51,277 bases of DNA from the sequence record NC_105513.1. One strand, written 5' to 3'. The translations under genes were made by a program, and so were the position numbers. Under the pieces are notes generated by a model, which worked only from the letters and a program-made list of their open reading frames with translations, made no database searches and was not told the DNA's origin. Below are positions 1-15,917 of this stretch, piece after piece; the stretch's first letter is position 1, and every line of letters begins with the position of its first letter. The DNA comes from a phage.

Positions 1-31
1 CTTTTATTTCTCCTTTCGTTTCGGTGAAGTG

Positions 32-76
32 ATTATGCCAGGCTTTTACACCTGGCTTTTAACAAAAAGTGCTATT
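32..76 (-). promoter_or_regulatory. box-type promoter (box 57..76, -10 CATAAT 32..37)
   Basis: rc reads AATAGCACTTTTTGTTAAAA-N22-CATAAT; serves gene 50891..51277 across the junction. Confidence 0.6.
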
Positions 77-782
77 TTGCGTTTGCTTCGAAGACTGCGC
101 GAGCAAAACCGCGCGGAGTGAGGGAGCGGATCATCTTTGTGCGAGATGATTTTCCGCCAGTTTTGGCCCAGCCTGGATTATCTTTGTCATTCTCTTTCGG
201 CAGGATTAAAGCGCGCTGAGGAATAACAAATCCGTTTCCAGTCCAAAGGCATGTTTTCTTAAAGTAGCGATCCCGCGCCGGAATAATATCAGGAAAGTCG
301 GGATGTTTATCATCTTCCGGAAGATAGCCAGCATAATCGCACGGATGGAACGTATAATCAGGCTTGCGCCATAACGTTGACAGCTTGCCTACAGGATTCT
401 CTATCATGTACGGAACGCCGAAATAATCAGCAATTTGCGCCGCTATTTTGCAAGTGTCGGCGGCCTCATCCTGGAAAGAGGGATTCTCAAGGCGTTTTTT
501 GGACCAATGGCGAGATCCGCTATTTGCAAGGTCAGTGCACGGCGGAAATGCCATAATGAAATCAGGCTTGCCCCAATTTTCAAGTTTTGCGGTATATTTG
601 AATAGCTCATCAATCCACACATTAACGTAAAAAATATTATCATGGATTATGCGCACTGATTGGTAATCTCCATGATCTGCATCATCGTAATTAAAGCAAA
701 TGCATTTATATCCAGCATCAGCCCAATCTTTAACGGCTTTACCAGATCCATCAAACAAAGAGAATATTAAACCTTTATACAT
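72..782 (-). CDS. DNA (cytosine-5)-methyltransferase-like protein
   Basis: 236 aa; ordered motifs FSLFDGSG (FxGxG AdoMet site), FPPC (PC catalytic Cys), IENPVG (ENV); RBS GAGGTG upstream; stop TAG embedded in promoter box. Confidence 0.55.
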   Translation of the reverse strand: MYKGLIFSLFDGSGKAVKDWADAGYKCICFNYDDADHGDYQSVRIIHDNIFYVNVWIDELFKYTAKLENWGKPDFIMAFPPCTDLANSGSRHWSKKRLENPSFQDEAADTCKIAAQIADYFGVPYMIENPVGKLSTLWRKPDYTFHPCDYAGYLPEDDKHPDFPDIIPARDRYFKKTCLWTGNGFVIPQRALILPKENDKDNPGWAKTGGKSSRTKMIRSLTPRGFARAVFEANAK

Positions 783-791
783 TTCATCACC

Positions 792-1016
792 TCAAAACGG
801 AAAGCATCTAGGGCAGTTCGGATCAAAATTGCAACCACAATCATTAACAATCATGGTTGGATCTGCAAATGCAGCGCCGCATTCATGGTCCATATCCATT
901 TCACCCAACGCATCATCAAGCGTCCTGATTTTATATGCGACCTCAAGCGCGGCCTCTTTATTCAGTCCGGCATCTTCTGCTTTTTGCAGTCGCTCAAAAA
1001 AACCGTCTTGACTCAT
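792..1016 (-). CDS. hypothetical cysteine-rich small protein
   Basis: 74 aa ORF, RBS AAGGAG; C-terminal CGCNFDPNCPRC cluster. Confidence 0.5.
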   Translation of the reverse strand: MSQDGFFERLQKAEDAGLNKEAALEVAYKIRTLDDALGEMDMDHECGAAFADPTMIVNDCGCNFDPNCPRCFPF

Positions 1017-1126
1017 TTAATAAACTCCTTAACAACAGCAAGAATAATCACAAGCCCAGCAGTAAAAACAAGCAAACCGACAAGGCCAATCATAACACCA
1101 AATAAAATATCAAGCGCCTTAATCAT
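1013..1126 (-). CDS. putative small hydrophobic peptide (37 aa)
   Basis: MIKALDILFGVMIGLVGLLVFTAGLVIILAVVKEFIK read from reverse complement; single predicted TM helix; stop overlaps next ATG; below ORF-track length cutoff. Confidence 0.3.
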   Translation of the reverse strand: MIKALDILFGVMIGLVGLLVFTAGLVIILAVVKEFIK

Positions 1127-1137
1127 TTATTCACCAT

Positions 1138-1166
1138 TGATAAAATGGGAGGCGGCAACCTCCCAT
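1138..1166 (-). terminator. rho-independent terminator
   Basis: 8-bp stem ATGGGAGG/CCTCCCAT, 6-nt loop, U-run on minus strand. Confidence 0.45.
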
Positions 1167-1173
1167 TGATTAA

Positions 1174-1434
1174 TCATACAGCCTTCCAGCTTTCAATAAA
1201 CATGCTGTTTTCTTCCAGAAGTTTAATCAATTCTTCGCGCGTATATTTGCGGATTTTACTACCTGGATGTGAGCCAACAACAAACACACCTTTACCACTT
1301 GTGATGGTTAACTGGTTAATTCCGCAAGATTTATCCATTTTCACGGCGACGCGGTGATGTGCATCAACAGTGTGCATGATGTTAGTGACTTTAGCTTTCA
1401 TTATGCGATCCTCATTGTACTTAGTGTAGGACAT
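1174..1434 (-). CDS. hypothetical protein
   Basis: 86 aa ORF in early leftward block. Confidence 0.5.
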   Translation of the reverse strand: MSYTKYNEDRIMKAKVTNIMHTVDAHHRVAVKMDKSCGINQLTITSGKGVFVVGSHPGSKIRKYTREELIKLLEENSMFIESWKAV

Positions 1435-1439
1435 TATAT

Positions 1440-1673
1440 TTACTTCAAATTCTCGATCTTGTTATTGCCAATTGCAGAATGAACGCAACGCTCTTGCGTC
1501 TCCTTGTCGCCATGAACATCAATATAATAACCAGGTATGACAGTAAAAAACCAATTACCACGCCAGAAGAAATAAAGGCCATGCTTGCTTCCTTTCGCGC
1601 ATTTATTAGCATTTTTAGGTATTGGAAGTCCGTGTACTCTCCGCAATTCTACATTCTTGTTAAAATTTGGCAT
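1440..1673 (-). CDS. hypothetical protein
   Basis: 77 aa ORF, RBS GGAGG 7 nt upstream. Confidence 0.5.
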   Translation of the reverse strand: MPNFNKNVELRRVHGLPIPKNANKCAKGSKHGLYFFWRGNWFFTVIPGYYIDVHGDKETQERCVHSAIGNNKIENLK

Positions 1674-1867
1674 TACACAACCTCCATAAAAGTATTGAAT
1701 CCACGCAGTTTGAAAGCATTGCCATGCTTAACAACGTTCCATGTCAGGCCGGAGTGATACGCAACCATATCCTCAAGATCAATGGTGATGATAGCGCCTT
1801 TCTTAAAGATTCCTTTCTCGTGAGTGGTGTCACGCTGTACAACTTTAACGTCAACCTGTGTTTCCAT
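1673..1867 (-). CDS. hypothetical protein
   Basis: 64 aa ORF preceded by promoter box 1924..1943 and conserved leader GAGGATTTAAAAATG. Confidence 0.5.
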   Translation of the reverse strand: METQVDVKVVQRDTTHEKGIFKKGAIITIDLEDMVAYHSGLTWNVVKHGNAFKLRGFNTFMEVV

Positions 1868-1898
1868 TTTTAAATCCTCATTCGTTGTCGATGCGCAT

Positions 1899-1943
1899 AA
1901 TATACCAATCAGAGGCGCATCGTTTTTAACAAAAAGTGCTATT
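1899..1943 (-). promoter_or_regulatory. box-type promoter (box 1924..1943, -10 TATATT)
   Basis: box, 22-bp spacer, TATATT, then conserved leader CATCGACAACGAATGAGGA. Confidence 0.6.
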
Positions 1944-2218
1944 CAACAACAGATCCAGTTAAAGAGATAAGCTGCCTTGTGATCATACTGACGCGCAACA
2001 ACCGGAAGATTTTCACCGCTCTGATGACCGAAGCAGATCGGCAACTCACCCTCAAGAGAGCGGAAGCCGCCAAATTCAAGATCCCGCACTGGCTTTGAGC
2101 GCCACGCTTCAATAAATCCGCGTTCGTCACGCGTGATATAGTGGTATATGTTAGGGAGGGGCAATTGTACACCCTCAAAATCCACGGTATCGGTATAGCT
2201 GTAAAACTTAGAACTCAT
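1943..2218 (-). CDS. hypothetical protein
   Basis: 91 aa from Met MSSKFYSY; RBS GGAG; start overlaps stop of 2208..2360. Confidence 0.5.
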   Translation of the reverse strand: MSSKFYSYTDTVDFEGVQLPLPNIYHYITRDERGFIEAWRSKPVRDLEFGGFRSLEGELPICFGHQSGENLPVVARQYDHKAAYLFNWICC

Positions 2219-2360
2219 AGTCAACAACTCCAAATTCGTTAACGATTTGCGCCTTATAGAATCCGCCATTTTTCGCAAGGTTGTAGCAGGCCGCTACAGT
2301 TTCAAATTCTCGCACTTCCGGCTGGCTGTTTTCATGTTCCCAGGTAATCAGAGTAACCAT
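2208..2360 (-). CDS. hypothetical small protein (50 aa)
   Basis: MVTLITWEHENSQPEV... read from reverse complement; preceded by promoter box and conserved leader GAGGATTTGAAAATG. Confidence 0.45.
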   Translation of the reverse strand: MVTLITWEHENSQPEVREFETVAACYNLAKNGGFYKAQIVNEFGVVDYEF

Positions 2361-2393
2361 TTTCAAATCCTCGCATTCGTTGTCGATGTGTGT

Positions 2394-2438
2394 AATATAT
2401 CGGATTGCGAGGATTGAGTTTTAACAAAAAGTGCTATT
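2394..2438 (-). promoter_or_regulatory. box-type promoter (box 2419..2438, -10 TATATT)
   Basis: box, 22-bp spacer, TATATT, conserved leader. Confidence 0.6.
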
Positions 2439-2704
2439 TAGTCCAGGAATTCGATTTCGCGCTCGCCAGTTAACGGATCTTTAATCCAGAATCCGAGCGC
2501 CTCACCGTAAATACCGCCATAGAATCCAAGCGCCGACAGATCCTCACCTTTAACAAATACCAGATCCCCGCTACGGCTTACGTGAGATACGTTAACGATA
2601 ACCGGAAAGGTGCGATCCTTAAATGCAGGCCGCAGGGCGTAACATCCGTTATTGAGCAAACGTGCTTTGCGCTTAACTGGAATAGGTGCATTGATTCGCG
2701 CCAT
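2438..2704 (-). CDS. hypothetical protein
   Basis: 88 aa ORF; stop abuts promoter box 2419..2438. Confidence 0.5.
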   Translation of the reverse strand: MARINAPIPVKRKARLLNNGCYALRPAFKDRTFPVIVNVSHVSRSGDLVFVKGEDLSALGFYGGIYGEALGFWIKDPLTGEREIEFLD

Positions 2705-2717
2705 CTTTATTTCTCCT

Positions 2718-2963
2718 TCATTGTTGATCGTGTTTAACGGCCATCAGAACATCACAGGACTCGTTAATGAATTTAGCCATGCGTTTATCATCACCAACAG
2801 GTATTAGCGCGTTAAACTCGCGTTTGCTACTGAATACCGTCACTTTATGAAACGATGCGAACGGCATCGACGGGAACTCGACTGTTTGCGTCAAGATTCG
2901 CAATCCCATCTTTTTGGCCCTTATCTGGGCCTCAGCGAGTTCAAAATCCACTTCACTAATCAT
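2718..2963 (-). CDS. hypothetical protein
   Basis: 81 aa ORF, overlaps start of downstream gene by 4 nt. Confidence 0.5.
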   Translation of the reverse strand: MISEVDFELAEAQIRAKKMGLRILTQTVEFPSMPFASFHKVTVFSSKREFNALIPVGDDKRMAKFINESCDVLMAVKHDQQ

Positions 2964-3232
2964 TTCTTGATCTCCTCAGCAATAAACTTCAGGACTTTGC
3001 GCAAAAACACTTCATTATTGATGGTCGCTGGCAATTCTTCTTTTACTTCTTGCGGCAGGTAAACGTTGCCATGCCAGGTTAAGCAATCGTAGTTGATACG
3101 ATAAGAGCAAAGCCACTCGCAATCGTTATCCGCTTCCCAAATGCAGAGTTGCAGAACATCACCGAAATCCTCAACAGTCAGATCCAGACCGTGACGCTTT
3201 GCAAAGTTGAAAGTGGTTTTGCTGATGTTCAT
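2960..3232 (-). CDS. hypothetical protein
   Basis: 90 aa ORF, RBS AGGAG; first gene after promoter box 3296..3315. Confidence 0.55.
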   Translation of the reverse strand: MNISKTTFNFAKRHGLDLTVEDFGDVLQLCIWEADNDCEWLCSYRINYDCLTWHGNVYLPQEVKEELPATINNEVFLRKVLKFIAEEIKK

Positions 3233-3270
3233 TTGCTTTCTCCTGATGGGTATCTCGTTTCGATGTGTGC

Positions 3271-3315
3271 ATTATGCCGAATCCAGTCAGGCACGTTTTA
3301 ACAAAAAGTGCTATT
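3271..3315 (-). promoter_or_regulatory. box-type promoter (box 3296..3315, -10 CATAAT)
   Basis: box, 22-bp spacer, CATAAT, leader CACATCGAAACGAGA; first promoter of leftward early block. Confidence 0.6.
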
Positions 3316-3539
3316 TGCTTACTGGTCATTATTCCATCTATTCCATTAATCAGGAATAACAGGAATAACTCATTCGCGATCACCTGGATTGGGAGACTTT
3401 GAGTTTGGTCAATTTTAATCAAGTGATTAACTTTTTGTGTGGAGGGGATAGAGAAACGCTGCCCTCTTGCATCCTTTCCGACAATCCTGGCGCGCGCATC
3501 TGTTATTTCTGTTCCCCATGTTATCTCAAATAAGCCTCC

Positions 3540-3868
3540 GCACTTTTAGATAACAGAATCGGCGTTCATCAACAAAAAGAACAAAATAAAATTTATATAT
3601 ATACCCATAAAATCAATAAGTTAGTTATATATGTATTTATATTTGTTATTTACTGTTGAGCTTGTTCTATGGGTATATGGTGGAGTGGTATTGTTTGTGG
3701 TGATATGTATGTGTGATTGTATATTTTTTAATCAATGGTGATATGTGGTGATTTTTGTATGTATATATATAGGTATGGAGCAATCCTCCGTCAACCAAGT
3801 CAACAAGGTCATTTTTAAAAGAAAAACCAATGACTTAACTGAAGCATTTTGTTATCTTTAAACGCGCC
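3540..3868. repeat. AT/GT-rich non-coding region A, homologous to region B
   Basis: ORF-free; shares exact 16-mer AAATCAATAAGTTAGT (3610..3625) and about 55 bp of flanking similarity with 32755..32812; GGTGAT iteron-like repeats. Confidence 0.6.
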
Positions 3869-3904
3869 ACATGCCAAAAATTGTTATTAAAACACAAAAA
3901 TACA

Positions 3905-3933
3905 TTGACACGTATGAAAGGCAAGGCAATAAT
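3905..3933 (+). promoter_or_regulatory. sigma70-like promoter TTGACA-17-AATAAT
   Basis: canonical spacing, about 35 nt upstream of ATG 3970. Confidence 0.5.
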
Positions 3934-3969
3934 GCATCCAGTTTAAACGCAACAAAAGGAGTAGACGCC

Positions 3970-4455
3970 ATGAGCGAAGAAAATATTAGCACCATGTCGC
4001 GTAGTGAGTTCTGCGATATGCTTCGCAGCCTGGGCGCGGCAATTGGTAGCGGTGAGCGTAATGATGTATTCATGCCAGCACTTTTTTTGTGCGCTAACGT
4101 GGAGAACGGCGAAGCAATTACGGCATCGTACATGCGCCAAGTGGTCAACCGTGTGCCAGAAGTAAAGCAAAAAGGCGTGATCAGCATTAAGCGAAAGGTG
4201 ACTGATGAGGGTGATGGCTTTGTGTTTACGCTCACTGAAGCCAAAAGCAAGCCTCGCGTTCTGACTGGTGAAGAAATCGACGAGATCGCAGAAAAGCGCG
4301 CAGAGAAGGCGGTAAGCAAAATTCTTAATCACCTGGTAAACGTAATGCCAAATATCACAGACCTGGAAGGCGACAAACTTGCTGGGGCGTGTGAGGCTAT
4401 CGGGCGCTACCAGGATATGATTCGTAAACTCGCTGGAGGAAAAGAGGATGAATAA
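3970..4455 (+). CDS. hypothetical protein
   Basis: 161 aa from MSEENIST; RBS AAGGAG; downstream of TTGACA-17-AATAAT promoter. Confidence 0.6.
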   Translation: MSEENISTMSRSEFCDMLRSLGAAIGSGERNDVFMPALFLCANVENGEAITASYMRQVVNRVPEVKQKGVISIKRKVTDEGDGFVFTLTEAKSKPRVLTGEEIDEIAEKRAEKAVSKILNHLVNVMPNITDLEGDKLAGACEAIGRYQDMIRKLAGGKEDE

Positions 4456-4708
4456 GGCATTAATTGGAGTTTTGATTGCAATCGCTACCCTTACCGGATG
4501 CGAAAAGGCATCTGAATCAACAGTTGTCGTAGGAGTGGAGTCAGATTTTAAAGTCGGTCGCCTGTTTACTGTTGATGGATGCACTGCGTACCGATTCTAT
4601 GACAACGGTCGAGCAATCTATTACACCAATTGTAAGGGCGCAACGGATAGCACATACCGCAGCGGCAAAAACGTAATGCACCAACAAGTCACAACAGATA
4701 TTAAATAG
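4448..4708 (+). CDS. putative lipoprotein
   Basis: 86 aa; N-terminal signal peptide with lipobox LTGC (MNKALIGVLIAIATLTGCEK). Confidence 0.6.
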   Translation: MNKALIGVLIAIATLTGCEKASESTVVVGVESDFKVGRLFTVDGCTAYRFYDNGRAIYYTNCKGATDSTYRSGKNVMHQQVTTDIK

Positions 4709-4748
4709 CACTTTTTGTTAAAACTCGAAAACGATAACCAGGCATAAT
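4704..4748 (+). promoter_or_regulatory. box-type promoter (-10 CATAAT 4743..4748)
   Basis: AATAGCACTTTTTGTTAAAAC, stop TAG 4706..4708 inside box; 22-bp spacer. Confidence 0.6.
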
Positions 4749-4803
4749 AAATCACATAGGGCGGCACGGCGTCGCACAGTTAAACCAATCAGGAGAAAGC
4801 ACC

Positions 4804-5697
4804 ATGTTAAAACTTGCTGACATTAAATTCCCGATCACCTTCGAATCTCGCGGCATTGGTCATTACATTTTTACCGATGAAAAAACATGCCATAAGGTTG
4901 ATATGAATAGCGACAAACTAACCCCATCAACAATGGAGATTGAACACTTTATTGATGCACACAATACGCACTACAACGCACTTAAAGACTATGGCTATGC
5001 AATGCCAGGCTACACATGTTTGCACTACAAGCCATATAAGGGCCAGGTGTTACCAGTGCGCTCACCGGAACGCGCAGAGATTCCGATGGTCAATATGAAA
5101 ACCTGCGACTACAAAAAGCTGTGGTGCTTAAGTCTGGACAATATCAAGTATCCGATCACGTTCCACACGACTGGTAAGTCAACGATTCGCTACACATCGC
5201 GCGACAATGGCGTTTATAGCGATGGTACGAAATCAGGGTTGAAAGTTGATTTCTTTGTCAATGGTCACAACAAGTTCAATCCGCACAATGAAAAGGATAA
5301 GGTGTACTACGTGGAAGATATTACAAAACACTTGTTTGGAGAAACACCATTCGGCGGCGGTAAGACGTCAATTCAACAAATCATTGGCGAGGAGATCCAC
5401 AAGGCAGCCGTTGAAATGAAAGCGCCTGGAGGATGGCGTATTGATAAGAGCGCAATTGTCTATCAAGAAATAGTAACGCAGGGCGCAATTGAAGACATGC
5501 CACTTGCCGCCACGCTAAAAGGCGTCCAAATTGCGGATGGCACATGGTTTGAATTAACGGCAAAACCAAAGACTATCGAGATTCATGATGATGTTGTTAT
5601 TCTTCTGCTTCATTACGGTAGCGCAAAAAACCGTACCGTTGCGGGTGAGATTAGCATCAAGCGCGGAACGATGGTTAAGTGGAATGTCAAAGTGTAA
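4804..5697 (+). CDS. hypothetical protein with internal tandem duplication
   Basis: 297 aa; two homologous segments (LADIKFPITFESRGIGHY... and LDNIKYPITFHTTGKSTI...). Confidence 0.65.
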   Translation: MLKLADIKFPITFESRGIGHYIFTDEKTCHKVDMNSDKLTPSTMEIEHFIDAHNTHYNALKDYGYAMPGYTCLHYKPYKGQVLPVRSPERAEIPMVNMKTCDYKKLWCLSLDNIKYPITFHTTGKSTIRYTSRDNGVYSDGTKSGLKVDFFVNGHNKFNPHNEKDKVYYVEDITKHLFGETPFGGGKTSIQQIIGEEIHKAAVEMKAPGGWRIDKSAIVYQEIVTQGAIEDMPLAATLKGVQIADGTWFELTAKPKTIEIHDDVVILLLHYGSAKNRTVAGEISIKRGTMVKWNVKV

Positions 5698-5740
5698 ATA
5701 GCACGAATTGTTAAAACTCAAATGTGGGGCCAGGTATAAT
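5697..5740 (+). promoter_or_regulatory. box-type promoter (-10 TATAAT 5735..5740)
   Basis: AATAGCACGAATTGTTAAAAC; 21-bp spacer. Confidence 0.6.
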
Positions 5741-5770
5741 GGCCTCACTTTCAACGAAGGAGATAAAACG

Positions 5771-6208
5771 ATGTACATTAGCAAGAAGATGAAATGCGTT
5801 TCCGTTAATTATGGTTGTGCTGGAATGTTCAAGCCTGGCGAAATCTATACGGCGCAAAAACTGAAATCATCAACCGGATCCTTTTACGTGAGCAATAGTA
5901 AAGGGCATCGCATGTTCCTGAACGGTGGCGAAGGCACTAAGGTTATGGCGCACGCTATGGTGATTGCTGAATTTGAGGAAGTGAAAGATGGAACAAATAA
6001 GCGCGTTAAGCACAAGTTTATTGATAATCATGGCGATGCACTTGAGGTATATAAGTTCGGCGATCGCGTGTTTATTGATGGCACATTTGAAGGTGGACGC
6101 AGGCCGGATTTTAGATCGATACTCACCATTGACCAGGTGCGCAAGCTGGCGGATAAGTTAAATGATCTGGCAGATGAAATCGAATACAAGCAAATTCATT
6201 TTAATTGA
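5771..6208 (+). CDS. hypothetical protein
   Basis: 145 aa from MYISKKMK; RBS AAGGAG. Confidence 0.55.
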   Translation: MYISKKMKCVSVNYGCAGMFKPGEIYTAQKLKSSTGSFYVSNSKGHRMFLNGGEGTKVMAHAMVIAEFEEVKDGTNKRVKHKFIDNHGDALEVYKFGDRVFIDGTFEGGRRPDFRSILTIDQVRKLADKLNDLADEIEYKQIHFN

Positions 6209-6219
6209 TAGGTTTGATA

Positions 6220-6759
6220 ATGAAAAAATACGAATTTGAACTTTGGGGCAGCAAATACCATTTTTCCACGAGCAAGCCGATTGTTATCGTTGACCTGGAC
6301 GGAACGTTATCAGACGGAACGCATCGCTTACACCTGCTTCCGACAGAAGATTTGCACCTTACAGAAAGCTGGTCTGAGTTCAATAAGGCGGCTGTTGGCG
6401 ATTCGCCGATTAAGAGCACGGTTGCAGTGGTTAACGGTTTGTGGATGTCAGGATTTGCCATCGTTATCCTGACCGGACGTAGCGATGAAGTGATGGAGGA
6501 CACCTGCAAATGGATTAACGAAAACGGCATCAAGTACGATGCGTTAATCATGCGCCGCAAGGAAGACAACCGCAAAGACACAATCATTAAAGAAGAAGTC
6601 TTGCGCGCTATCGGCCTAGAAAACATCGTGTGCGCTTTTGATGATTCGCCGAACGTGGTTAAGCACTTCCGCAGCCTGGGAATCACAACCTATCAGGTCA
6701 CGGAATACGACAAGCCACATAATCATATCCAATCGCATGGCGTGGAGGAATTGAAATGA
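6220..6759 (+). CDS. HAD-superfamily phosphatase-like protein
   Basis: 179 aa; DxDGT nucleophile motif (IVIVDLDGTLSDG), later ILTGR and FDDSP motifs typical of HAD hydrolases. Confidence 0.6.
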   Translation: MKKYEFELWGSKYHFSTSKPIVIVDLDGTLSDGTHRLHLLPTEDLHLTESWSEFNKAAVGDSPIKSTVAVVNGLWMSGFAIVILTGRSDEVMEDTCKWINENGIKYDALIMRRKEDNRKDTIIKEEVLRAIGLENIVCAFDDSPNVVKHFRSLGITTYQVTEYDKPHNHIQSHGVEELK

Positions 6760-6917
6760 TCTGGTTACTTTTAATCTTTGTCACAAGTTACAATTCCGCC
6801 GCTATTGAATCGCAAGAGTTCCACGGCGAATCAAGATGCCAGGAAGCACGAAAACAAGTTGTTCTCCACATGTCAGATAGTGGGAAAGATGTAACAGCGC
6901 TATGCGTTCGTAAATAG
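6756..6917 (+). CDS. small membrane protein (MIWLL family, 53 aa)
   Basis: ATG overlaps upstream stop; hydrophobic N-terminus MIWLLLIFVTSY; stop TAG embedded in promoter box. Confidence 0.45.
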   Translation: MIWLLLIFVTSYNSAAIESQEFHGESRCQEARKQVVLHMSDSGKDVTALCVRK

Positions 6918-6957
6918 CACTTTTTGCAAAAACACATTATCGGGCTTGCGGTATAGT
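6913..6957 (+). promoter_or_regulatory. box-type promoter (-10 TATAGT 6952..6957)
   Basis: AATAGCACTTTTTGCAAAAAC; 21-bp spacer; conserved leader CCCATCGACAACAAGCGAGGA. Confidence 0.55.
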
Positions 6958-6988
6958 AAGCCCATCGACAACAAGCGAGGATTAAATC

Positions 6989-7253
6989 ATGGTTAATAAA
7001 GTTGAGTTTTTCAAAGCGGTAGACAAGATTGACGGCGCGCCAAGTTTCTTTGCTATCCATTCCATTGACGGCGAAAGACGTTGCATACAACGTGATTAGT
7101 CGAGACGGTATATCAAAACTTAGTGACCTGGTGGGTTATATTGTGGCAAACGGGAAATGTGCATGGCCCGATTCGCCACGAGAGCCGCGCCGCCGCGACA
7201 TGCAAAATCCAGTCCTGCTTTACACGCTGGTAATTGAAGGAGTCAACAAATGA
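6989..7253 (+). pseudogene. frameshifted or two-part ORF (hypothetical protein)
   Basis: ATG at 6989 with conserved leader and RBS GAGGA reads 36 codons to TAG 7097..7099; the +1 frame stays open to 7253 with no ATG of its own. Confidence 0.3.
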
Positions 7254-7435
7254 TTTGGTTACTTGTATTTTTGGTGGTTTTCTTTTATATTTCAGGCTTA
7301 TTCATCTTCCGTGCGCTGGTGAAAACATGCGATTGCACGGATAAAGATCATCCTCTTGTTCTGATGTTCTGGTTTGTGTGGTTTTGGGTTGCGCTTTATC
7401 AGATTGTACGGGATAAAAGCGGATTCAAGTGGTGA
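7250..7435 (+). CDS. small membrane protein (MIWLL family, 61 aa)
   Basis: Starts MIWLLVFLVVFFYISGLFIF; two hydrophobic segments; paralog of 6756..6917. Confidence 0.5.
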   Translation: MIWLLVFLVVFFYISGLFIFRALVKTCDCTDKDHPLVLMFWFVWFWVALYQIVRDKSGFKW

Positions 7436-7629
7436 TTCTTACTATAGCGCATTCACGCAGTGCGCTATGTTGAGATAACAACATGAGATCATGAAGATGC
7501 GAAACTTCGAAAAAATCGTATCCAAAAAGAAGCGATACAGCTACCACGAGCACCAAGAGATGAATCAACGCTATCGCAATAAGCGCCAGCGCAAAGGTAA
7601 ACATTCCGGTAAACATGGAGAAAATCAAT

Positions 7630-8220
7630 ATGAAACGCGACATTATCATTCTTAACGGACCGCCAGGAGTTGGCAAAGATACGCTTGCGGCATACTTAAC
7701 GGGTCATCGTTACGCAGCGGTTAAAGCGTCATTTAAACAGCCTATGTTCGATATTGCATTCTCCATGCTTGGCGTTTACCGATATGACGAGTTCATTGAT
7801 CTGTATAACGACCGTGAGCAGAAAGAAAAGCCTCAAGCAATCTTGCAAGGTAAGTCTCCGCGACAATTCATGATCTGGATTAGCGAAGAAGTCATGAAGC
7901 CAGCTTTTGGCGAGCAATATTTTGGGAATCGCATGGTTGAGCAAGTACACGAGATGTACAGAGATTTAGCTGTTGTAATTAGTGATGGCGGATTCCCTGA
8001 AGAAATCAAGCCGCTCGTTAAGGCAGGCCATGAAGTTCACATTTGCCGACTGCATCGCGAAGGATTCACGTTTGATGGCGATTCACGAAACTATATTGAC
8101 CTGAGCGGATACCATCACCGAGTCAAGCATTACGACTTCACAATGATTGATGGCGAGCCAGAAAAGACTGTTGACGAGATCATCAAAGCGGTGCAGTGGA
8201 AACACACAAAGATTGAATAG
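7630..8220 (+). CDS. P-loop nucleotide kinase-like protein
   Basis: 196 aa; Walker A ILNGPPGVGKDT near N-terminus; RBS GGAG. Confidence 0.6.
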   Translation: MKRDIIILNGPPGVGKDTLAAYLTGHRYAAVKASFKQPMFDIAFSMLGVYRYDEFIDLYNDREQKEKPQAILQGKSPRQFMIWISEEVMKPAFGEQYFGNRMVEQVHEMYRDLAVVISDGGFPEEIKPLVKAGHEVHICRLHREGFTFDGDSRNYIDLSGYHHRVKHYDFTMIDGEPEKTVDEIIKAVQWKHTKIE

Positions 8221-8260
8221 CACGAATTGCTAAAAGCGGGGCGCAATGCCTCGCTATAAT
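8216..8260 (+). promoter_or_regulatory. box-type promoter (-10 TATAAT 8255..8260)
   Basis: AATAGCACGAATTGCTAAAAG; 22-bp spacer. Confidence 0.6.
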
Positions 8261-8290
8261 GCAAACACCAATCAACGAGAGGAAATCATC

Positions 8291-8692
8291 ATGGTAGAGT
8301 TAAACGACATTCGCGTTGGAACAAAATTTCGCGTAACCTGGGCAGATGAATATTGCGGCGTTAGCAAGGGCCAGGTTGTTACTGTGGATAGTATTTATCG
8401 CGGATGCAGCAAAGACTTTCGCCGCCCACGCATCAAGAATGGCTATATCATTACTCGCCGTTTTGGATTTGATCATTATTGCGTAGTGGCGACTCAAGGA
8501 GTTTTGATTGAGCTTAAGCGAATCAGCGATCATCGCGGCTGTCATGTTAAGACAATGAAGACACCATCTCAGCGATCGCGATACGATGCGCGCAGGATGC
8601 GCAGGCTTGCACGAAACGCGATCAAGTTCAAAAAGCCTGGTGGTAACTTTTACCGAATGTACAAAGGGATTGCGCGAAATGCTGGAAAATAA
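8291..8692 (+). CDS. hypothetical protein (basic C-terminus)
   Basis: 133 aa from MVELNDIRVG; RBS GAGAGGAA. Confidence 0.55.
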   Translation: MVELNDIRVGTKFRVTWADEYCGVSKGQVVTVDSIYRGCSKDFRRPRIKNGYIITRRFGFDHYCVVATQGVLIELKRISDHRGCHVKTMKTPSQRSRYDARRMRRLARNAIKFKKPGGNFYRMYKGIARNAGK

Positions 8693-8791
8693 CAACAACG
8701 CAACCAATCCAAAGCCGCCATTTGATTTTCATGAAATCATGATTGTGTTATTCTTGATTCTCTTAGTTATTTATTCAGTGAGGGCCGCACT

Positions 8792-9055
8792 ATGGTTTTT
8801 AACGCACTAAAACGAATCTTTAAACCTGAATACCGGATCGTTGCTTGCACAGAATGCAAGATTTATTACCTGCAACGCCGCCGCGTTATTAGTGGGGATT
8901 GGGAATATCTGACGGATGATGCTTTCGGATTTTGGGCTATGGAGTTCAATAGCTACAGCGAAGCGCGTGAATACGCTAAAAAGTTGCACAAGTTCAGACC
9001 TTACAAGCTGCGTTTGCTGGTTGTCAAAAAATGCGATGTGTTGGATCACGAATGA
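8792..9055 (+). CDS. hypothetical protein
   Basis: 87 aa, RBS GAGGG; CTEC motif. Confidence 0.5.
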   Translation: MVFNALKRIFKPEYRIVACTECKIYYLQRRRVISGDWEYLTDDAFGFWAMEFNSYSEAREYAKKLHKFRPYKLRLLVVKKCDVLDHE

Positions 9056-9231
9056 AAAGAGTAATTATCATTTTTATTACCATTATCGCTGGTTGCTACC
9101 TGGCTTATAATTATAGCGGCATTGTTGAGTCAATCGGCGGGTTGATTATCTTCATGGCTGGCGGGTATGCTGGCTATTGTGATGGATTCGAAAACGGAAA
9201 GCGTTACATGCTGACCGGAAAAAAGAAGTAA
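9052..9231 (+). CDS. small membrane protein
   Basis: 59 aa from MKRVIIIFITIIAGCYLAY; ATG overlaps upstream stop. Confidence 0.5.
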   Translation: MKRVIIIFITIIAGCYLAYNYSGIVESIGGLIIFMAGGYAGYCDGFENGKRYMLTGKKK

Positions 9232-9273
9232 TGTTAACCGCGCCGCTCCGGTGGCGCTAAAAGGAGGAAGCAA

Positions 9274-9561
9274 ATGGCTAAAAGCAATCGTAAAATGTTG
9301 ATTAACGCATTCGAAAAGGCAGCGCTTGAGCGTGGCTGGAATGACTCATTTCACACAGCAAACTGTATCCGCCGTTACGGATTCAAGAATTGCCGCTCCT
9401 GGGCGCGTCAAATGGCTTCATGGTATGATCTTGATGCGCATTACCTTGATATGGATTGCGCCCTTGTTGAAATGATTGAGCAGGCCGCATTAGAGGATCG
9501 ACCATTAACGCAATCTGATTTTGACGATTTTGTGCGCGATGAAATTTATTATATGAGCTAA
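9274..9561 (+). CDS. hypothetical protein
   Basis: 95 aa, RBS AAGGAGGAAG; stop followed by promoter box. Confidence 0.55.
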   Translation: MAKSNRKMLINAFEKAALERGWNDSFHTANCIRRYGFKNCRSWARQMASWYDLDAHYLDMDCALVEMIEQAALEDRPLTQSDFDDFVRDEIYYMS

Positions 9562-9604
9562 TAGCACTTTTTGTTAAAACTTCCGCGAGGGCATTTGTTA
9601 AAGT
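9560..9604 (+). promoter_or_regulatory. box-type promoter (weak -10 TAAAGT)
   Basis: AATAGCACTTTTTGTTAAAAC; 22-bp spacer to TAAAGT. Confidence 0.45.
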
Positions 9605-9636
9605 GTCCTCATTGAAGCGAAATAGAGGAAAGCGCA

Positions 9637-9855
9637 ATGAAAATCAAGATTATAGACGTGAACAATGCCATTAGTGGTGACGAACTTACACTTGAGGAGT
9701 GCGGGATTGAGGTTGGCGATGTGTTCGAAGTTACCGGACAATATCGCGATGGAACTTTGAGCATTCAAGCGCCACGAGATACCGATGATGGTTGCATCAA
9801 GGCTGGCGATGAATTGAGCGTTAACGAAGGTGAATATGAGGTTGTAGAAGAATGA
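9637..9855 (+). CDS. hypothetical acidic protein
   Basis: 72 aa, RBS GAGGAA. Confidence 0.55.
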   Translation: MKIKIIDVNNAISGDELTLEECGIEVGDVFEVTGQYRDGTLSIQAPRDTDDGCIKAGDELSVNEGEYEVVEE

Positions 9856-10115
9856 TCACGATTAACCTGTCAGAGCAGCAAGCGCGCATTATGTTAGCGG
9901 CCTTTGGTTGGCGAGATGATGACGGTATTCAGGCAACGGTTAAAATCCCTGATACGGTAGCGCGTGAAGTTTTTAACCAGCTTGAACACGCATTTGTTCC
10001 TGTTGGCACTGATCAGGCAGAAACAGCGGCTTGGTTCGGAGAGAACGGATACAGAGATCAGCAAGTCGAAAACTGGAAGCGCAAAAACGAGACTGCGGAG
10101 GAGGCCGGATTATGA
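9852..10115 (+). CDS. hypothetical protein
   Basis: 87 aa, start overlaps upstream stop. Confidence 0.55.
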   Translation: MITINLSEQQARIMLAAFGWRDDDGIQATVKIPDTVAREVFNQLEHAFVPVGTDQAETAAWFGENGYRDQQVENWKRKNETAEEAGL

Positions 10116-10426
10116 TTTACATTCACTACTACCAGATCGGGACAAACGAAAACAAGCAGGAGCGCAGAGCAATTTGTGACACGCTCGACGATGCGAAAGC
10201 ACAGCAACGCGTTTTGGGTGGTGTAATTCAGGCTTTTGAGCCAGTGGAAGATATAGAGCACCGAGAGCATTTGAAAGAGATTGTTGTTGATGAAATTTCA
10301 TCACTAATCGACGACATGACAAATCACGGGCCTGGTTCTCCGTGGGAAGAAGCCGGATCGACGGAGTGGGATTGTGCTAAAGTTGCAACGCTTAACGAAT
10401 TTCGTGAGTTGCTAGACGATTTTTAA
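10112..10426 (+). CDS. hypothetical protein
   Basis: 104 aa from MIYIHYYQ, RBS GGAGGAGG. Confidence 0.55.
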   Translation: MIYIHYYQIGTNENKQERRAICDTLDDAKAQQRVLGGVIQAFEPVEDIEHREHLKEIVVDEISSLIDDMTNHGPGSPWEEAGSTEWDCAKVATLNEFRELLDDF

Positions 10427-10624
10427 TTAAAATTGAATGCCTCATACAGCGAACAGGACGCATTTTGACGAGGTATTTTTTATGTAAGGTGATTCAATGG
10501 GTAGCTATATAAAACCGTCGCAATGGTGCGCACAGAAGCAAGAGGAAGCATTAGAGCGCGGCAACAATGAAACAGCAATGCACTATTTCGAAATGTACAA
10601 CTTGTGGAAGGGTAGAGGTCTGTA

Positions 10625-10855
10625 ATGTTTGGAATGAACGAGGCACAATTCAACGCTGCAAAACGCCAGGCTAAGAAGTGCGGCGAGGCAATGAAGGCGG
10701 ATGTTGAAAAGCGCGGGAAGTATGTTGATGAAGTCATGAAGGGCATTATTGCCGAACATTATCAGCCAGTTGCGCCAATGCTGACAATTACCCAATTCAT
10801 CTGGTTGTGTGGTTATCTTCGTGGGAGATGGGGAAACGCATTTGACCGCGAATGA
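10625..10855 (+). CDS. hypothetical protein
   Basis: 76 aa ORF. Confidence 0.5.
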   Translation: MFGMNEAQFNAAKRQAKKCGEAMKADVEKRGKYVDEVMKGIIAEHYQPVAPMLTITQFIWLCGYLRGRWGNAFDRE

Positions 10856-10884
10856 TTGACAACGATTTCCTGATTGGTTAGCAT
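10856..10884 (+). promoter_or_regulatory. sigma70-like promoter TTGACA-17-TAGCAT
   Basis: in 164-bp ORF-free gap; followed by structured region and U-run. Confidence 0.35.
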
Positions 10885-11019
10885 ATTCAGCGTTTACATA
10901 AGAGCGGCATTAGTGCCGAACGGGTGGCGCGGTTGCCACGCAACAATGGCGATGTGCTGGAGGTTATTGCGATGCAATATAATCCGTAAGACGTATCGCC
11001 TTTTTTTATAGGTGAATAT

Positions 11020-11253
11020 ATGGAAAAGTACAAATTAACTTTCATGTTTAATAGCATGGTGATGAATCCCTTAAATGGTTACGCTTGCAATAGCTTTTCT
11101 GTTACCGTTAATGAGGATGAAATTGATGATGATGGAAAATTCATTCGAATTGGTGAATACTTGTACCCAGTGCACAATATCAATTGCATCAAACGCGAGA
11201 TCGTAAAAGATGAAGTACAAGGTAAGGTTGACGATCAGGCGAATGGGGCGTAA
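11020..11253 (+). CDS. hypothetical protein
   Basis: 77 aa ORF, RBS GGTGA. Confidence 0.5.
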   Translation: MEKYKLTFMFNSMVMNPLNGYACNSFSVTVNEDEIDDDGKFIRIGEYLYPVHNINCIKREIVKDEVQGKVDDQANGA

Positions 11254-11395
11254 TTGCTCGTCATGTAGACAAAGTTTTGAATGTGATGTTGAAGCGCGCG
11301 GAGAGCTTGAGGCAGCAGCAAGAGCAAAAGAGTTGTCCGGCGCTAATCAAGACACTCACCAGTTTTCAATAGATCTTGTAAGGAAAATGTCATGA
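11243..11395 (+). CDS. hypothetical zinc-ribbon-like small protein
   Basis: 50 aa from MGRNCSSCRQSFECD; overlaps preceding ORF, start uncertain. Confidence 0.35.
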   Translation: MGRNCSSCRQSFECDVEARGELEAAARAKELSGANQDTHQFSIDLVRKMS

Positions 11396-11631
11396 GTTCT
11401 GTAATTATTGGTTTGGTTGCTTTAATCATTGGTGTTCTAATCGGCTTTGTTGCTGTATCTTTCGTGGTGGCTGTTGGTGTTCGCTATAAGTCAAAAAAAG
11501 GTGAATTTGCTTTAGCGTTTTGGGATGAAGATCAGAAAGTTTGGCAGGTTCGCGGTCACTACTTATCAATCGGTGGCAGGATTCACAGCACTATGAAGAC
11601 AAATCCAGAAAAAGTAAAATACAAGTATTGA
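11392..11631 (+). CDS. hypothetical membrane protein
   Basis: 79 aa; N-terminal TM segment VIIGLVALIIGVLIGFVAVSFVVAV. Confidence 0.5.
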   Translation: MSSVIIGLVALIIGVLIGFVAVSFVVAVGVRYKSKKGEFALAFWDEDQKVWQVRGHYLSIGGRIHSTMKTNPEKVKYKY

Positions 11632-11638
11632 ACAACTA

Positions 11639-11661
11639 CCCGCCAAATGGCGGGTTTTTTA
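11639..11661 (+). terminator. rho-independent terminator
   Basis: CCCGCC-AAAT-GGCGGG then TTTTTT. Confidence 0.6.
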
Positions 11662-11683
11662 TTGCCTGCAATTTGTCTATAAT
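11655..11683 (+). promoter_or_regulatory. putative promoter with consensus -10 TATAAT (11678..11683)
   Basis: perfect -10 about 28 nt upstream of terminase small subunit ATG; -35 not convincing. Confidence 0.35.
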
Positions 11684-11711
11684 GATGCTTTGTTATAAAG
11701 GAGGGCGCATT

Positions 11712-12233
11712 ATGGCTAAAAACGTTGAGCCAGCAGTAAAGGCTTGCAATTTTAAAAAACTATATAATAAGCAATATGGCGATATAGCAAAAATGACAAA
11801 GGCGCACAAGTACACGCCGGAGCAGGTATTTGATCTGGCTGTTCGTTACTTTACGTGGGCTGAGGAAAACCATATACAGGCTGCGGAAACGGCATCCTTT
11901 CAGGGTGACGTATACGAAAGTAAGATTCACAAGCCGCGCGTGTTCACCTTAAATGGATTCCGCTTATTCGCTGGCCTTTCTGCCTCCGTACTTGAAAAAT
12001 GGCGACGTGAGCCAGGATTCAGCGATGTTATGGACTTTATCGACGGCGTTGTTTACGAGCAAAAATTCCAGCTTGCCGCAAACAATATTGTTAACGCTGG
12101 ATTCATTGGCAAAGAGATCGGCATTGAAAAGCCAGCTACCGTTACCATTGAGAATAACACAAGCGCCAGCGTTGACGCTGTAACGGCGGAGGAAGTAAAA
12201 GAGGCGGTAATTGACATTCTGGAGAAGATATAA
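11712..12233 (+). CDS. putative terminase small subunit
   Basis: 173 aa directly upstream of and overlapping the large terminase start; RBS AAGGAGGG; assigned by position only. Confidence 0.5.
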   Translation: MAKNVEPAVKACNFKKLYNKQYGDIAKMTKAHKYTPEQVFDLAVRYFTWAEENHIQAAETASFQGDVYESKIHKPRVFTLNGFRLFAGLSASVLEKWRREPGFSDVMDFIDGVVYEQKFQLAANNIVNAGFIGKEIGIEKPATVTIENNTSASVDAVTAEEVKEAVIDILEKI

Positions 12234-13801
12234 TGCTGATTTGGGAAGACTTAACAGCGGCGCAAAAACGCGCCGTTAAGGAAATGAGCGAATATTCATT
12301 CGAAAAGATGATCCGCATTTGGTTTCAACTTCTCCAGGGGCAAAGGTTTTTAGGAAACTGGCATTTCAGTTACCTATGCAGCGAAGTTGAAAAAATCATC
12401 AAAGGCGAGTCACAGAATGTAATTTTCAACATAACGCCAGGCAGTGGTAAAACAGAGATATTCTCGATCCACATGTCACCTTATGCGTCATTGAAAAGTA
12501 AGAAGGTGAGAAATCTTAATTTGTCGTTTAGTGATGGCCTTGTCCAGCAGAATAGCAACCGCATCAAAGAGATTATTGGTTCTCCAGAATGGCAGGAGCT
12601 ATGGCCTGGAAAGTTGGCAAAGGCGAGCGCAAAGGATTTGATTGTAACTGATGGCGGCAAGGTTAAATTACAAGTTAACTCGCGTTCTATCGGAGGTCAG
12701 GTTACTGGTCTGCGTGGTGGCTACATGGACGATGGTTTTACTGGTATGTTGGTTCTTGATGATCCAGACAAGCCGGATGACATGCTTTCTAAGGTGAAGC
12801 GCGAAGCCGGACACATGCGCCTAAAGAACACGGTGCGATCGCGTCGAATGAAGGACACCACGCCAATTGTGATGGTTCAGCAACGTCTACACGTCAATGA
12901 TTCAACATGGTTCATGACAAACGGCGGCATGGGCGGCATCAAGTTTAAGGTGGTTAGTATTCCGGCGCTCGTTACTAAGGAATATCGCGAAACGCTTCCT
13001 GATTGGTTAAAGCCTGAGTTTGATCGCGATGTTTTGTCCAGTAAGCCAGTGATGATTGATGGCGTTGCTCATTATTCATTCTGGCCTGCTAAGGAAAGCG
13101 CGGATGAATTGCTTGCGCTTCGCAATGCCGATCCGTACACGTTCGCTAGTCAGTATCAGCAACAGCCTGTTGCGCTTGGCGGTAACGTGTTTAAAACAGA
13201 GTGGTTTCAGTATTACGGAAGCAGCGAGAAATGCACGCTACCAAAACCGGATCGCTTTGAATATACATTTATCACGGTTGATACCGCGCAGAAAACAGGG
13301 GAGCTTAACGACTATTCCGTGATCTGTTATTGGGGGATGTATAAAGATCGTGTCTACTTCATTGATGGCGTTCGCGGGAAATGGGAAGCACCGGACCTTG
13401 AGACGAATTTTGTTGCATTCGTTAATCAGTGCTGGAAGCGCAATAAAGAATGCGGAACGTTGCGAAGGATTCATGTTGAAGATAAATCGTCTGGCACTGG
13501 ATTGATTCAGAGTGCGGCGAAAAAAATCATGATCAAGATCAATCCCGTTCAGCGCGATAAAGACAAGGTTACTCGTGCAATGGACGCAGCACCAGTAATG
13601 CGCGCCGGACGCGTGGCACTTCCAGAATCTCATTCTATGCTGGCTGAGATACTCGCTGAAGTTGCGGCGTTCACATTCGATGATTCGCATCCTCATGATG
13701 ATATTGTTGATAACATCATTGATGCGGTTAACATTGAAATGAACATGGCAGATGATCCGGTTGGAAGAATGAAAAAATTGGCAGGTTTGCGGAACAAATA
13801 G
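12233..13801 (+). CDS. terminase large subunit
   Basis: 522 aa; N-terminal ATPase with Walker A ITPGSGKTE and acidic Walker B LVLDDPDKPDD; C-terminal nuclease-like region; position before portal. Confidence 0.85.
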   Translation: MLIWEDLTAAQKRAVKEMSEYSFEKMIRIWFQLLQGQRFLGNWHFSYLCSEVEKIIKGESQNVIFNITPGSGKTEIFSIHMSPYASLKSKKVRNLNLSFSDGLVQQNSNRIKEIIGSPEWQELWPGKLAKASAKDLIVTDGGKVKLQVNSRSIGGQVTGLRGGYMDDGFTGMLVLDDPDKPDDMLSKVKREAGHMRLKNTVRSRRMKDTTPIVMVQQRLHVNDSTWFMTNGGMGGIKFKVVSIPALVTKEYRETLPDWLKPEFDRDVLSSKPVMIDGVAHYSFWPAKESADELLALRNADPYTFASQYQQQPVALGGNVFKTEWFQYYGSSEKCTLPKPDRFEYTFITVDTAQKTGELNDYSVICYWGMYKDRVYFIDGVRGKWEAPDLETNFVAFVNQCWKRNKECGTLRRIHVEDKSSGTGLIQSAAKKIMIKINPVQRDKDKVTRAMDAAPVMRAGRVALPESHSMLAEILAEVAAFTFDDSHPHDDIVDNIIDAVNIEMNMADDPVGRMKKLAGLRNK

Positions 13802-13817
13802 CACGAATCGACAAACC
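13797..13817 (+). promoter_or_regulatory. degenerate box copy without correctly spaced -10
   Basis: AATAGCACGAATCGACAAACC at terminase stop; followed by terminator, not a -10. Confidence 0.4.
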
Positions 13818-13831
13818 AATATATAATCAAA

Positions 13832-13856
13832 GGCTGGTAAATCCAGCCTTTTTTAT
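13832..13856 (+). terminator. rho-independent terminator between terminase and portal
   Basis: GGCTGG-TAAAT-CCAGCC then TTTTTTATT. Confidence 0.6.
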
Positions 13857-13869
13857 TGGAGGAAAGATA

Positions 13870-15150
13870 ATGAGTAAATCACGAATCGTTAAGGCTGATG
13901 GCTATAACGAGATCTTTAAAGGCGAGAATTGCAAATCGCGAGTAGAGCAACCATTCTACATGCAATCAATGCCATACAAGACACTTGCTGACTTTTACGA
14001 AAAAGACGGCCTGGCAAAAAGGGTTATTGACGTAGTACCAGAGGAAATGGTTTCCCCTGGCTTCACGGTTGACGGCGTGGCAGACGAGGCAGCATTCCGT
14101 TCTTTGTGGGATGAGAAGCGATTGAATGCAAAAATTATTGATGCGCTTTGCTGGTCGCGTTTGTTTGGTGGATCTGCAATCATTGCTCTTGTTCAGGATG
14201 GGCGAGCGCTCAAATCACCTGTAAAGCCTGGTGCCATGTTGGAGGATGTGCGAGTTTACGATCGCTATCAGATTCGCGTTGAAGCGCGCGAAACTAATCC
14301 CCGCAAGGTTCGCTATGGTGAGCCAGTGCTTTACACTGTAACGCCAGGCGGAGACTTGCCGGAATACCAGGTACACTACACGCGCGTTTGCATTATCGAC
14401 GGTGAGCGGATACCTAACGCAAAGCGACGCAGCAATGATGGCTGGGGTGAGTCAGTTCTTAACAAGCGACTTGTTGAGGCTATTGTTGATTATAACTATT
14501 GTGAAACATTGGCAACGCAATTATTGCGGCGTAAGCAACAGGCGGTATGGAAGGCTAAAGGACTCGCTGACTTGTGCGATGATGAGGAAGGTGTTAGCGC
14601 GGCACGCCTGAGACTTGCGCAGGTTGACGATGAGGGCGGCGTAGGCAAGGCCATTGGTATTGATGCTGAGGATGAGGAATATGATGTTCTTAACTCTGAC
14701 ATTAGCGGAGTTGATTCTTTTCTGGAAAAGAAAATGGATCGCATAGTTTCCCTTTCAGGTATTCATGAAATCATCCTGAAAAATAAAAACGTTGGCGGCG
14801 TTAGCGCAAGCCAAAACACGGCGCTTGAAACATTCTATAAACTTATTGAGCGAAAACGCGTTGAGGATTACAAACCTATCCTTGAATTTCTATTGCCGTT
14901 CATCATTAGTGAGCAGGAGTGGAGCATTGAGTTTTCACCTTTGAGCGTGCCTAGCGATAAAGATCAGGCTGAAATTCTGAATAAGAATATCGACTCAATC
15001 AGCAAGGCTATTGATGGTCAGTTCCTTGATGTTGAAGAAGCGCGAGACACGTTGCGAGCAATCGCCCCAAGCGTTAAACTAAAGGACACTAATAAAATCA
15101 AGCTGCCGGAGCCATCGGAGCCGGAGCCAGGCACGCAGGGGAATGAGTAA
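13870..15150 (+). CDS. portal protein
   Basis: 426 aa immediately after terminase, RBS GGAGGAAAG; size and position typical. Confidence 0.75.
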   Translation: MSKSRIVKADGYNEIFKGENCKSRVEQPFYMQSMPYKTLADFYEKDGLAKRVIDVVPEEMVSPGFTVDGVADEAAFRSLWDEKRLNAKIIDALCWSRLFGGSAIIALVQDGRALKSPVKPGAMLEDVRVYDRYQIRVEARETNPRKVRYGEPVLYTVTPGGDLPEYQVHYTRVCIIDGERIPNAKRRSNDGWGESVLNKRLVEAIVDYNYCETLATQLLRRKQQAVWKAKGLADLCDDEEGVSAARLRLAQVDDEGGVGKAIGIDAEDEEYDVLNSDISGVDSFLEKKMDRIVSLSGIHEIILKNKNVGGVSASQNTALETFYKLIERKRVEDYKPILEFLLPFIISEQEWSIEFSPLSVPSDKDQAEILNKNIDSISKAIDGQFLDVEEARDTLRAIAPSVKLKDTNKIKLPEPSEPEPGTQGNE

Positions 15151-15914: not shown

Positions 15915-15917
15915 TTA

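Follow-up and report, generated by a model that had tools for sequence, protein, structure and literature searches.

A one-base insertion in a conserved accessory gene of a T1-like phage, between two unrelated genes for predicted small membrane proteins

The window analysed here is the whole of sequence record NC_105513.1, 51,277 nucleotides (nt) in length, and megablast placed the region described below in a T1-like coliphage of the genus Hanrivervirus (Drexlerviridae). The subject is a 0.7-kb stretch of this window that carries three small genes, referred to here as gene 1, the middle gene and gene 3, of which the middle gene is interrupted by a frameshift. The genes and the lesion are as follows.

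6756..6917, + strand: gene 1, 53 amino acids (aa), beginning MIWLL, with a Shine-Dalgarno (SD) sequence GGAGGA at 6744-6749
6989..7253, + strand: the middle gene, a frameshifted ortholog of an 87-aa protein, identified by alignment with phages vojen, KarlJaspers and pSf-1
7074-7076, + strand: the lesion in the middle gene, AAA where intact alleles have AA, at codons 29/30 (GAA-GAC to GAA-AGA-C)
7250..7435, + strand: gene 3, 61 aa, beginning MIWLL, with an SD sequence AGGAG at 7238-7242

The closest record, that of Escherichia phage JLBYU09, was 99.9% identical to the window over positions 6200-7700 in the megablast search. Over the first 25 kb of the window the identity was 99.8%, and a 28-kb block aligned without gaps at 99.97%. 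The JLBYU09 record is a poorer assembly of nearly the same phage, with 126 Ns and several segments missing, while the window contains no Ns.

The initial annotation had described an open reading frame (ORF) at position 6989 that ends after 36 codons and a +1 frame that continues to 7253 without a start of its own, and both descriptions hold. The stop codon is the TAG at 7097-7099, so the product as written (6989..7099) is a 36-aa peptide made up of 29 native residues and seven out-of-frame residues. The +1 frame is open to the TGA at 7251-7253, and its candidate starts are TTG codons with no SD sequence. When related phages were compared, the middle gene was found to be one ORF elsewhere, broken in the window by a one-base insertion. 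In vojen and KarlJaspers it is annotated as a single ORF of 264 nt encoding 87 aa. In the alignment the window and JLBYU09 read GGCGAAAGAC and the intact alleles GGCGAAGAC, a difference of one extra A. The intact form is widespread, as tblastn matched at least 80% of the 87-aa query in 141 phage records and 56 of the 58 protein clusters of the family are 86–87 aa long.

Closely related natural sequences were found among 14 independent Logan/ENA contigs that encode the exact 53-aa protein of gene 1, and the neighbourhood was displayed for seven places in these contigs. The gene following gene 1 encoded 87 aa in six, and in the seventh (L019) it was cut by the end of the contig. In each of the six with an intact 87-aa gene, the 61-aa gene 3 came next. 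Across 6756-7435 these six differed from the window by the extra A and no more than two substitutions, and all six have AA. With one A removed, the middle gene of the window was 100% identical to those of L013, L015 and L017, which are independent environmental contigs. The allele with the extra A (the +A allele) was not found in IMG/VR or in the JGI metagenomes, the 36-aa product was absent from an exact-protein index, and the 62-aa C-terminal product was on record in two contigs only, JLBYU09 and presumably the window's own record. The lesion thus appears to be single, private to this lineage and very recent; the age is judged from the gene being otherwise unchanged from intact natural alleles. 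The suggestion that this is a decaying gene or a sequencing indel was right in so far as a one-base insertion breaks a conserved 87-aa gene, but 'decaying' overstates the case because, without the A, the gene is identical to intact natural alleles and has no further lesion.

We consider the extra A very probably a real mutation. The same allele is present in two separately assembled genomes, which agree on AAA, and the longer homopolymers nearby (T5 and A5, 6920-6932) show no indels in an N-free sequence. Illumina miscalls of A2/A3 runs are rare. The published phages of the same laboratory, namely JLBYU41 (OK272479.1, also a Hanrivervirus) and two co-published phages, were sequenced with Illumina (PMC10373560), and the platform for JLBYU09 is assumed to be the same. 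A number of points weigh on the other side. The extra A is known from assembled sequences alone and may be a consensus error, all six of the near-identical natural contigs examined have AA, and both carriers are from a single laboratory and possibly from a single stock. The only carrier besides the window is the low-quality assembly of JLBYU09, in which gene 1 contains an N-filled, partial false duplication of 52 nt (L001, 1152-1205, corresponding to approximately window position 6850). That duplication is an assembly artefact, which gives an annotated product of 58 aa and lies 250 nt upstream of the extra A. The same lineage also has a second indel of 1 nt that is suspicious, in a short A run 1,084 nt upstream of 7074-7076, for which relaxed selection and a systematic fault in calling are both possible explanations. 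Taking these together, a sequencing or assembly consensus error in a phage that truly has an intact 87-aa gene is unlikely, though of the alternatives considered here it is the one to be taken most seriously. The possibility that the break is real and is bypassed is far more remote. Here, +1 ribosomal frameshifting at GAA-AGA would act as a recoding site and some full-length 87-aa protein would be made. As in the prfB and 'hungry codon' AGG/AGA shifts, AGA, a rare and pause-prone codon in Escherichia coli, would be in the A site exactly where the shift restores the frame, and a +1 slip after GAA would give back the exact ancestral ...DGEDVAYNV. However, the site is found in no relative, all of which encode the 87-aa protein in one frame, and there is therefore no conserved programmed signal. 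Re-pairing of the P-site tRNA-Glu from GAA to AAA would be mismatched at the first position, by inspection the upstream sequence ATCCATTCCATTGACGGC lacks an SD-like stimulator of the prfB kind, and an Rfam scan of 6000-8500 returned no match. A programmed +1 frameshift was rejected on these grounds, the two-frame organisation being unconserved (the +A allele is in two records) and the site anatomy poor.

The second indel was detected by comparing the genome neighbourhoods. It is also private to the window and JLBYU09 and reduces A3 to A2 at 5992-5993 (relatives read GATGGAAACAAATAAG and the window GATGGAACAAATAAG at window positions 5988-5996). In every relative examined, including vojen, pSf-1 and L013-L016, overlapping genes of 76 aa and 73 aa meet at this point. 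The deletion fuses them into a 145-aa ORF (5771..6208) in the window and JLBYU09, and the ATG of the second of these genes, at 5988, now opens an out-of-frame ORF of 57 aa. The same early block contains a further variant, a fusion or a frameshift, in L015 (1049-2245), where the upstream 296-aa gene and the 76-aa gene are called as a single gene of 398 aa.

Known kinds of frameshift were considered for comparison. Phage contingency loci are homopolymeric simple sequence repeats of at least 6 nt that undergo reversible frameshifts (bioRxiv 10.1101/2025.10.21.683753). The locus resembles them in that a homopolymer indel inactivates a phage gene, but with a tract of AA/AAA (2–3 nt against the 6 nt or more of the definition) it was not accepted as one. 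It is of the same kind as the ordinary null alleles that indels produce in non-essential accessory genes of phages, with intact orthologs in nearly all relatives and independent nulls elsewhere. Nothing substantive separates it from these, although the allele, which has acquired no additional change, is unusually young.

Genes 1 and 3 had been interpreted as two MIWLL paralogs in a locally duplicated island. The observations behind this interpretation are sound. Both ORFs begin with MIWLL, both overlap the preceding stop codon in an ATGA, and they share the 5' sequence AAATGAT(C/T)TGGTTACTT, which is found at 6754 and 7248 and nowhere else in the window, against an expectation of 0.02 occurrences of this 17-mer from shuffles. 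The interpretation did not hold. The likeness ends after approximately nine residues or 28 nt, of which 23 are identical, and the ATGA stop/start overlap by itself accounts for four of the 17 shared bases. BLASTP of gene 1 against gene 3 gave no alignment at E<=100, and hhalign of the two family alignments returned a probability of 7%. The genes belong to different PHROG families (5579/3766 for gene 1, 9755 for gene 3) and their architectures differ, with a short apolar segment and a soluble tail containing a Cys pair predicted from hydropathy for gene 1 and a hairpin of two transmembrane (TM) segments for gene 3.

Nor is the MIWLL/17-nt identity conserved in the orthologs. Gene 1 starts with MTWLL, MTWIL or MTRIL in vojen, pSf-1, KarlJaspers, 2019SD1, L007 and L010, and MTW or MTR (ATGACC...) was present in all of the less closely related relatives examined. 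MIW (ATGATC) was confined to the near-identical lineage, namely the window, JLBYU09 and the contigs encoding the identical 53-aa protein. Position 2 of gene 3 is variable as well, with MTW in 19 contigs and MIY also found. The Ile of gene 1 appears to be a lineage-specific point substitution of ACC to ATC, a simple C-to-T transition. Gene conversion from gene 3 was rejected as its source, since gene 1 uses ATC for this residue and gene 3 uses ATT, and the Ile was therefore not copied.

Several observations favour some relationship between the two genes, which are neighbours and have the most similar 5' ends of any ORF pair. When all ATG-ORF starts in the window were compared in register, these two, 494 nt apart, scored highest among 25,878 pairs, 20 of the 27 positions outside the ATG being identical. 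Trp3 is largely conserved in both families, and the hhalign comparison had a nominal P of 0.005 over 35 columns. Hence, the first ~28 nt of the two genes may have an old shared origin. The next-best pairs were identical at 18, 18, 18 and 17 of the 27 positions and, with 18 reached three times, the likeness is real but only modestly above chance. It is also allele-specific, as gene 1 of the KarlJaspers or 2019SD1 type begins ATGACCTGGATTCTATTTGTG.... With the negative comparisons given above, an origin of genes 1 and 3 by local duplication, or at least by duplication of a 5' membrane-targeting segment with the rest diverged or replaced after ~28 nt, is very unlikely. In our preferred reading, in which no duplication took place, the MIWLL likeness would come from a hydrophobic N-terminus for membrane targeting in each protein, from the A-ATG-A that the overlap imposes and from a change of Thr to Ile in this lineage. 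The two genes should not be grouped as one family.

The 87-aa protein encoded by intact alleles of the middle gene is under purifying selection, with a ratio of non-synonymous to synonymous substitutions (dN/dS, omega) of 0.13–0.23. Strong conservation is seen in residues 1–36 and in a C-terminal block, KC..D..EPRRRDM..PVLLYTLV.E. The family was confined to T1-like phages, in contigs of ~50 kb. AlphaFold2 gave a confident beta3-alpha-beta model (mean predicted local distance difference test score 86, predicted template modelling score 0.78), and the protein is proposed to be soluble. There was no match in Pfam, NCBIfam or PADLOC, a profile search of the PDB sequences yielded nothing at E<=1, and the matches in PHROG were weak and all to families of unknown function. 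Structural matches in BFVD were to uncharacterised proteins of T1- and T5-like phages and to part of a 252-aa Pnk protein of Hafnia phage Pocis76 (E 8.6e-4). The Pocis76 match implied a Pnk fusion, but the Pnk proteins of relatives that carry a C-terminal extension showed no similarity, and the idea was rejected. Among 1.8 billion representatives, a deep profile search recovered only 16 small phage proteins.

Independent lesions were found in other lineages. The pSf-1 allele has lost one base near codon 16 and that of PGN590 has a stop after 61 aa, one family member (P0057) is truncated at 52 aa on 15 contigs, and two others (P0058 and P0078) are frameshifted. A further lesion was seen in Shigella phage 2019SD1 (L012, 1501-1794), where the gene has an in-frame insertion of 33 nt, and together these lesions indicate that the 87-aa gene is dispensable. 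The translation of the insertion, RWVILWRTVNVHG, resembles an out-of-frame partial duplication of the adjoining segment, and the name of the source protein is tagged UNVERIFIED_ASMBLY.

The recurrence of null alleles raises the question of whether they are adaptive. A small non-essential protein of a T1-like phage, Gp54 of phage Bas11, triggers the defence protein CapRel-SJ46 (PMC11578894), and by analogy the 87-aa protein could be conditionally harmful, for example sensed as a trigger of host defence, yet kept in the wild for countering something else. The null alleles (the +A allele, the -1 deletion of pSf-1, the stop in PGN590, and P0057, P0058 and P0078) would then be adaptive escapes. Like Gp54-Bas11, the 87-aa protein is a small early protein of Drexlerviridae that is dispensable in the laboratory and is lost via premature stops or deletions. 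They differ in fold, beta3-alpha-beta against a beta-barrel of 66 aa, and the profile search of PDB sequences, which include the Gp54 crystal structure, gave no indication of homology at E<=1. We regard escape as improbable. In a related reading, the indels at 5992 and 7074 may both have been selected during isolation on a pst-phoU mutant host.

The flanking genes are real genes, with dN/dS of 0.04–0.15 for gene 1 and 0.06–0.13 for gene 3. Hydropathy analysis of the gene 1 product revealed a short, signal-peptide-like hydrophobic segment at the N-terminus (residues 1–12) that is followed by SYNSAA/IES and a hydrophilic tail of 37 aa containing Cys28 and Cys50. It is proposed to be exported or anchored by its N-terminus. 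Gene 3, which matches PHROG 9755 (1.7e-27) and has 15 homolog clusters, encodes a predicted two-TM hairpin membrane protein with apolar stretches at 1–20 and 35–50, a loop KTCDCTDKDHP and a basic C-terminus. The ATG of gene 3 and the TGA that ends the intact middle gene overlap.

Further features were found around the three genes.

6220..6759, + strand: pnk, a HAD-type polynucleotide kinase/phosphatase gene (Pnk phosphatase domain), 179 aa from the ATG at 6220
6912..6932, + strand: a T1-family 21-nt intergenic direct repeat, here AAATAGCACTTTTTGCAAAAA, matching the consensus aaATAGCACnnnTTGnTAAAA
6942..6963, + strand: a hairpin, GGGCTTGC/GGTATA/GTAAGCCC, minimum free energy (MFE) -15.8 kcal/mol, z = -3.2
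7444..7468, + strand: a perfect 8-bp inverted repeat, ATAGCGCA...TGCGCTAT, MFE -21.4 kcal/mol, z -2.9
56-77, 1923-1944, 2418-2439 and 3295-3316, - strand: copies of the 21-nt repeat
4702, 5695, 6911, 8214, 9558 and 13796, + strand: copies of the 21-nt repeat

A 'conserved leader' had been noted upstream of the ORF at 6989, and it is indeed repeated elsewhere in the window. From its sequence, this leader is the 21-nt direct repeat that passages of PMC11447400 describe in the T1-family phages TLS, T1 and Rtp, where it lies ~76 nt upstream of start codons. At this locus the ATAGCAC of the repeat is 75 nt upstream of the ATG at 6989, and the stop codon of gene 1 (TAG, 6915-6917) falls inside this ATAGCAC core. 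Over window positions 1-16000 there are six copies on the + strand and four on the - strand, in two divergent early arms. The 50 nt downstream of the repeat contained a significantly stable hairpin (z <= -2) in seven of the ten copies, often with a TATAAT-like box in or near the loop, and such hairpins do not figure in those passages of PMC11447400. The spacing of ~22 nt between TTGnTA and the -10-like box is too long for a standard -35. Several copies of the repeat also share a CATCGACAAC...GAGGATT leader.

Downstream of the repeat at 6912-6932, the hairpin at 6942..6963 overlaps a -10-like box, TATAGT, at 6952-6957, and is followed by the conserved CATCGACAAC leader and an SD sequence GAGGA at 6977-6981. 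The sequence of this hairpin and leader was invariant in five relatives. The inverted repeat at 7444-7468 forms a hairpin just 3' of gene 3 that has no U-tract and no match in Rfam. Downstream of it is an ORF (7491..7655) for a very basic protein of 54 aa, which is weakly similar to T7 protein 1.1 (Pfam E 0.028).

The product of the upstream gene, pnk, matches Pfam HAD_PNKP (2.6e-22) and PHROG 415 (7e-66), and its counterparts in relatives are annotated as polynucleotide kinase. The TGA stop of pnk overlaps the ATG of gene 1. The slot that gene 1 occupies, with the Pnk HAD domain on one side and the downstream 21-nt repeat on the other, is hypervariable, and in relatives it contains gene 1, nothing, a C-terminal Pnk extension of 55–85 aa, or another ORF. 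This slot, which reaches from where the HAD domain ends to the repeat, is a mosaic hot spot in L005, L006, L008, L009 and L011. It is empty in L006, and the others have either a Pnk of 236–264 aa or an extra ORF of 63 aa. In the comparison with KarlJaspers the synonymous divergence (dS) was ~1.3 for gene 1 and ~0.05 for the middle gene, and this difference places a mosaic junction at the repeat. A 49-aa protein from the representative library (P0088) has a gene-1-like N-terminus, MATWILLILM...SCIEAR, joined directly to EPRRRDMVEPVLLYTLVVE, which is C-terminal sequence of the 87-aa family. This suggests that P0088 may be a natural chimera, produced by a deletion that fused gene 1 and the 87-aa gene in some phage.

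The explanation that we favour for the locus as a whole, and hold to be highly probable, is as follows. The 0.7-kb stretch would be part of an early accessory block, running from left to right, in which pnk is followed by three small genes unrelated to one another. Gene 1, in its hypervariable cassette slot, would be translationally coupled to pnk via the ATGA overlap. The 21-nt repeat, the hairpin with its -10-like box and the SD sequence would together head a two-gene unit consisting of the 87-aa gene and then gene 3, with gene 3 coupled to the 87-aa gene via the second ATGA overlap. The extra A that the window shares with JLBYU09 (A2 to A3, 7074-7076) puts codon 30 of the 87-aa gene and all that follow in the wrong frame. 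The truncated product lacks part of strand 3, the helix, the last strand and the invariant C-terminal KC..D..EPRRRDM..PVLLYTLV.E block and, given the loss of these elements of the model, we infer that the allele is null. As ribosomes now stop 150 nt before the ATG of gene 3, the frameshift probably also uncouples gene 3 from upstream translation, and gene 3 would then depend on its own AGGAG. The insertion is probably a true mutation fixed in the lineage of the isolate, tolerated because the 87-aa gene is dispensable in laboratory culture.

The locus is thus an ordinary one, a fresh one-base insertion in a conserved accessory gene flanked by two unrelated small membrane-protein genes, and its significance beyond annotation is small. 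For annotation, the fragments 6989..7099 and 7029/7065..7253, which appear as separate hypothetical proteins in JLBYU09, should be recorded as one frameshifted gene. For the Drexlerviridae, the locus is a natural knockout of a conserved gene in a background otherwise identical to wild alleles, and it could be used to test the function of that gene.

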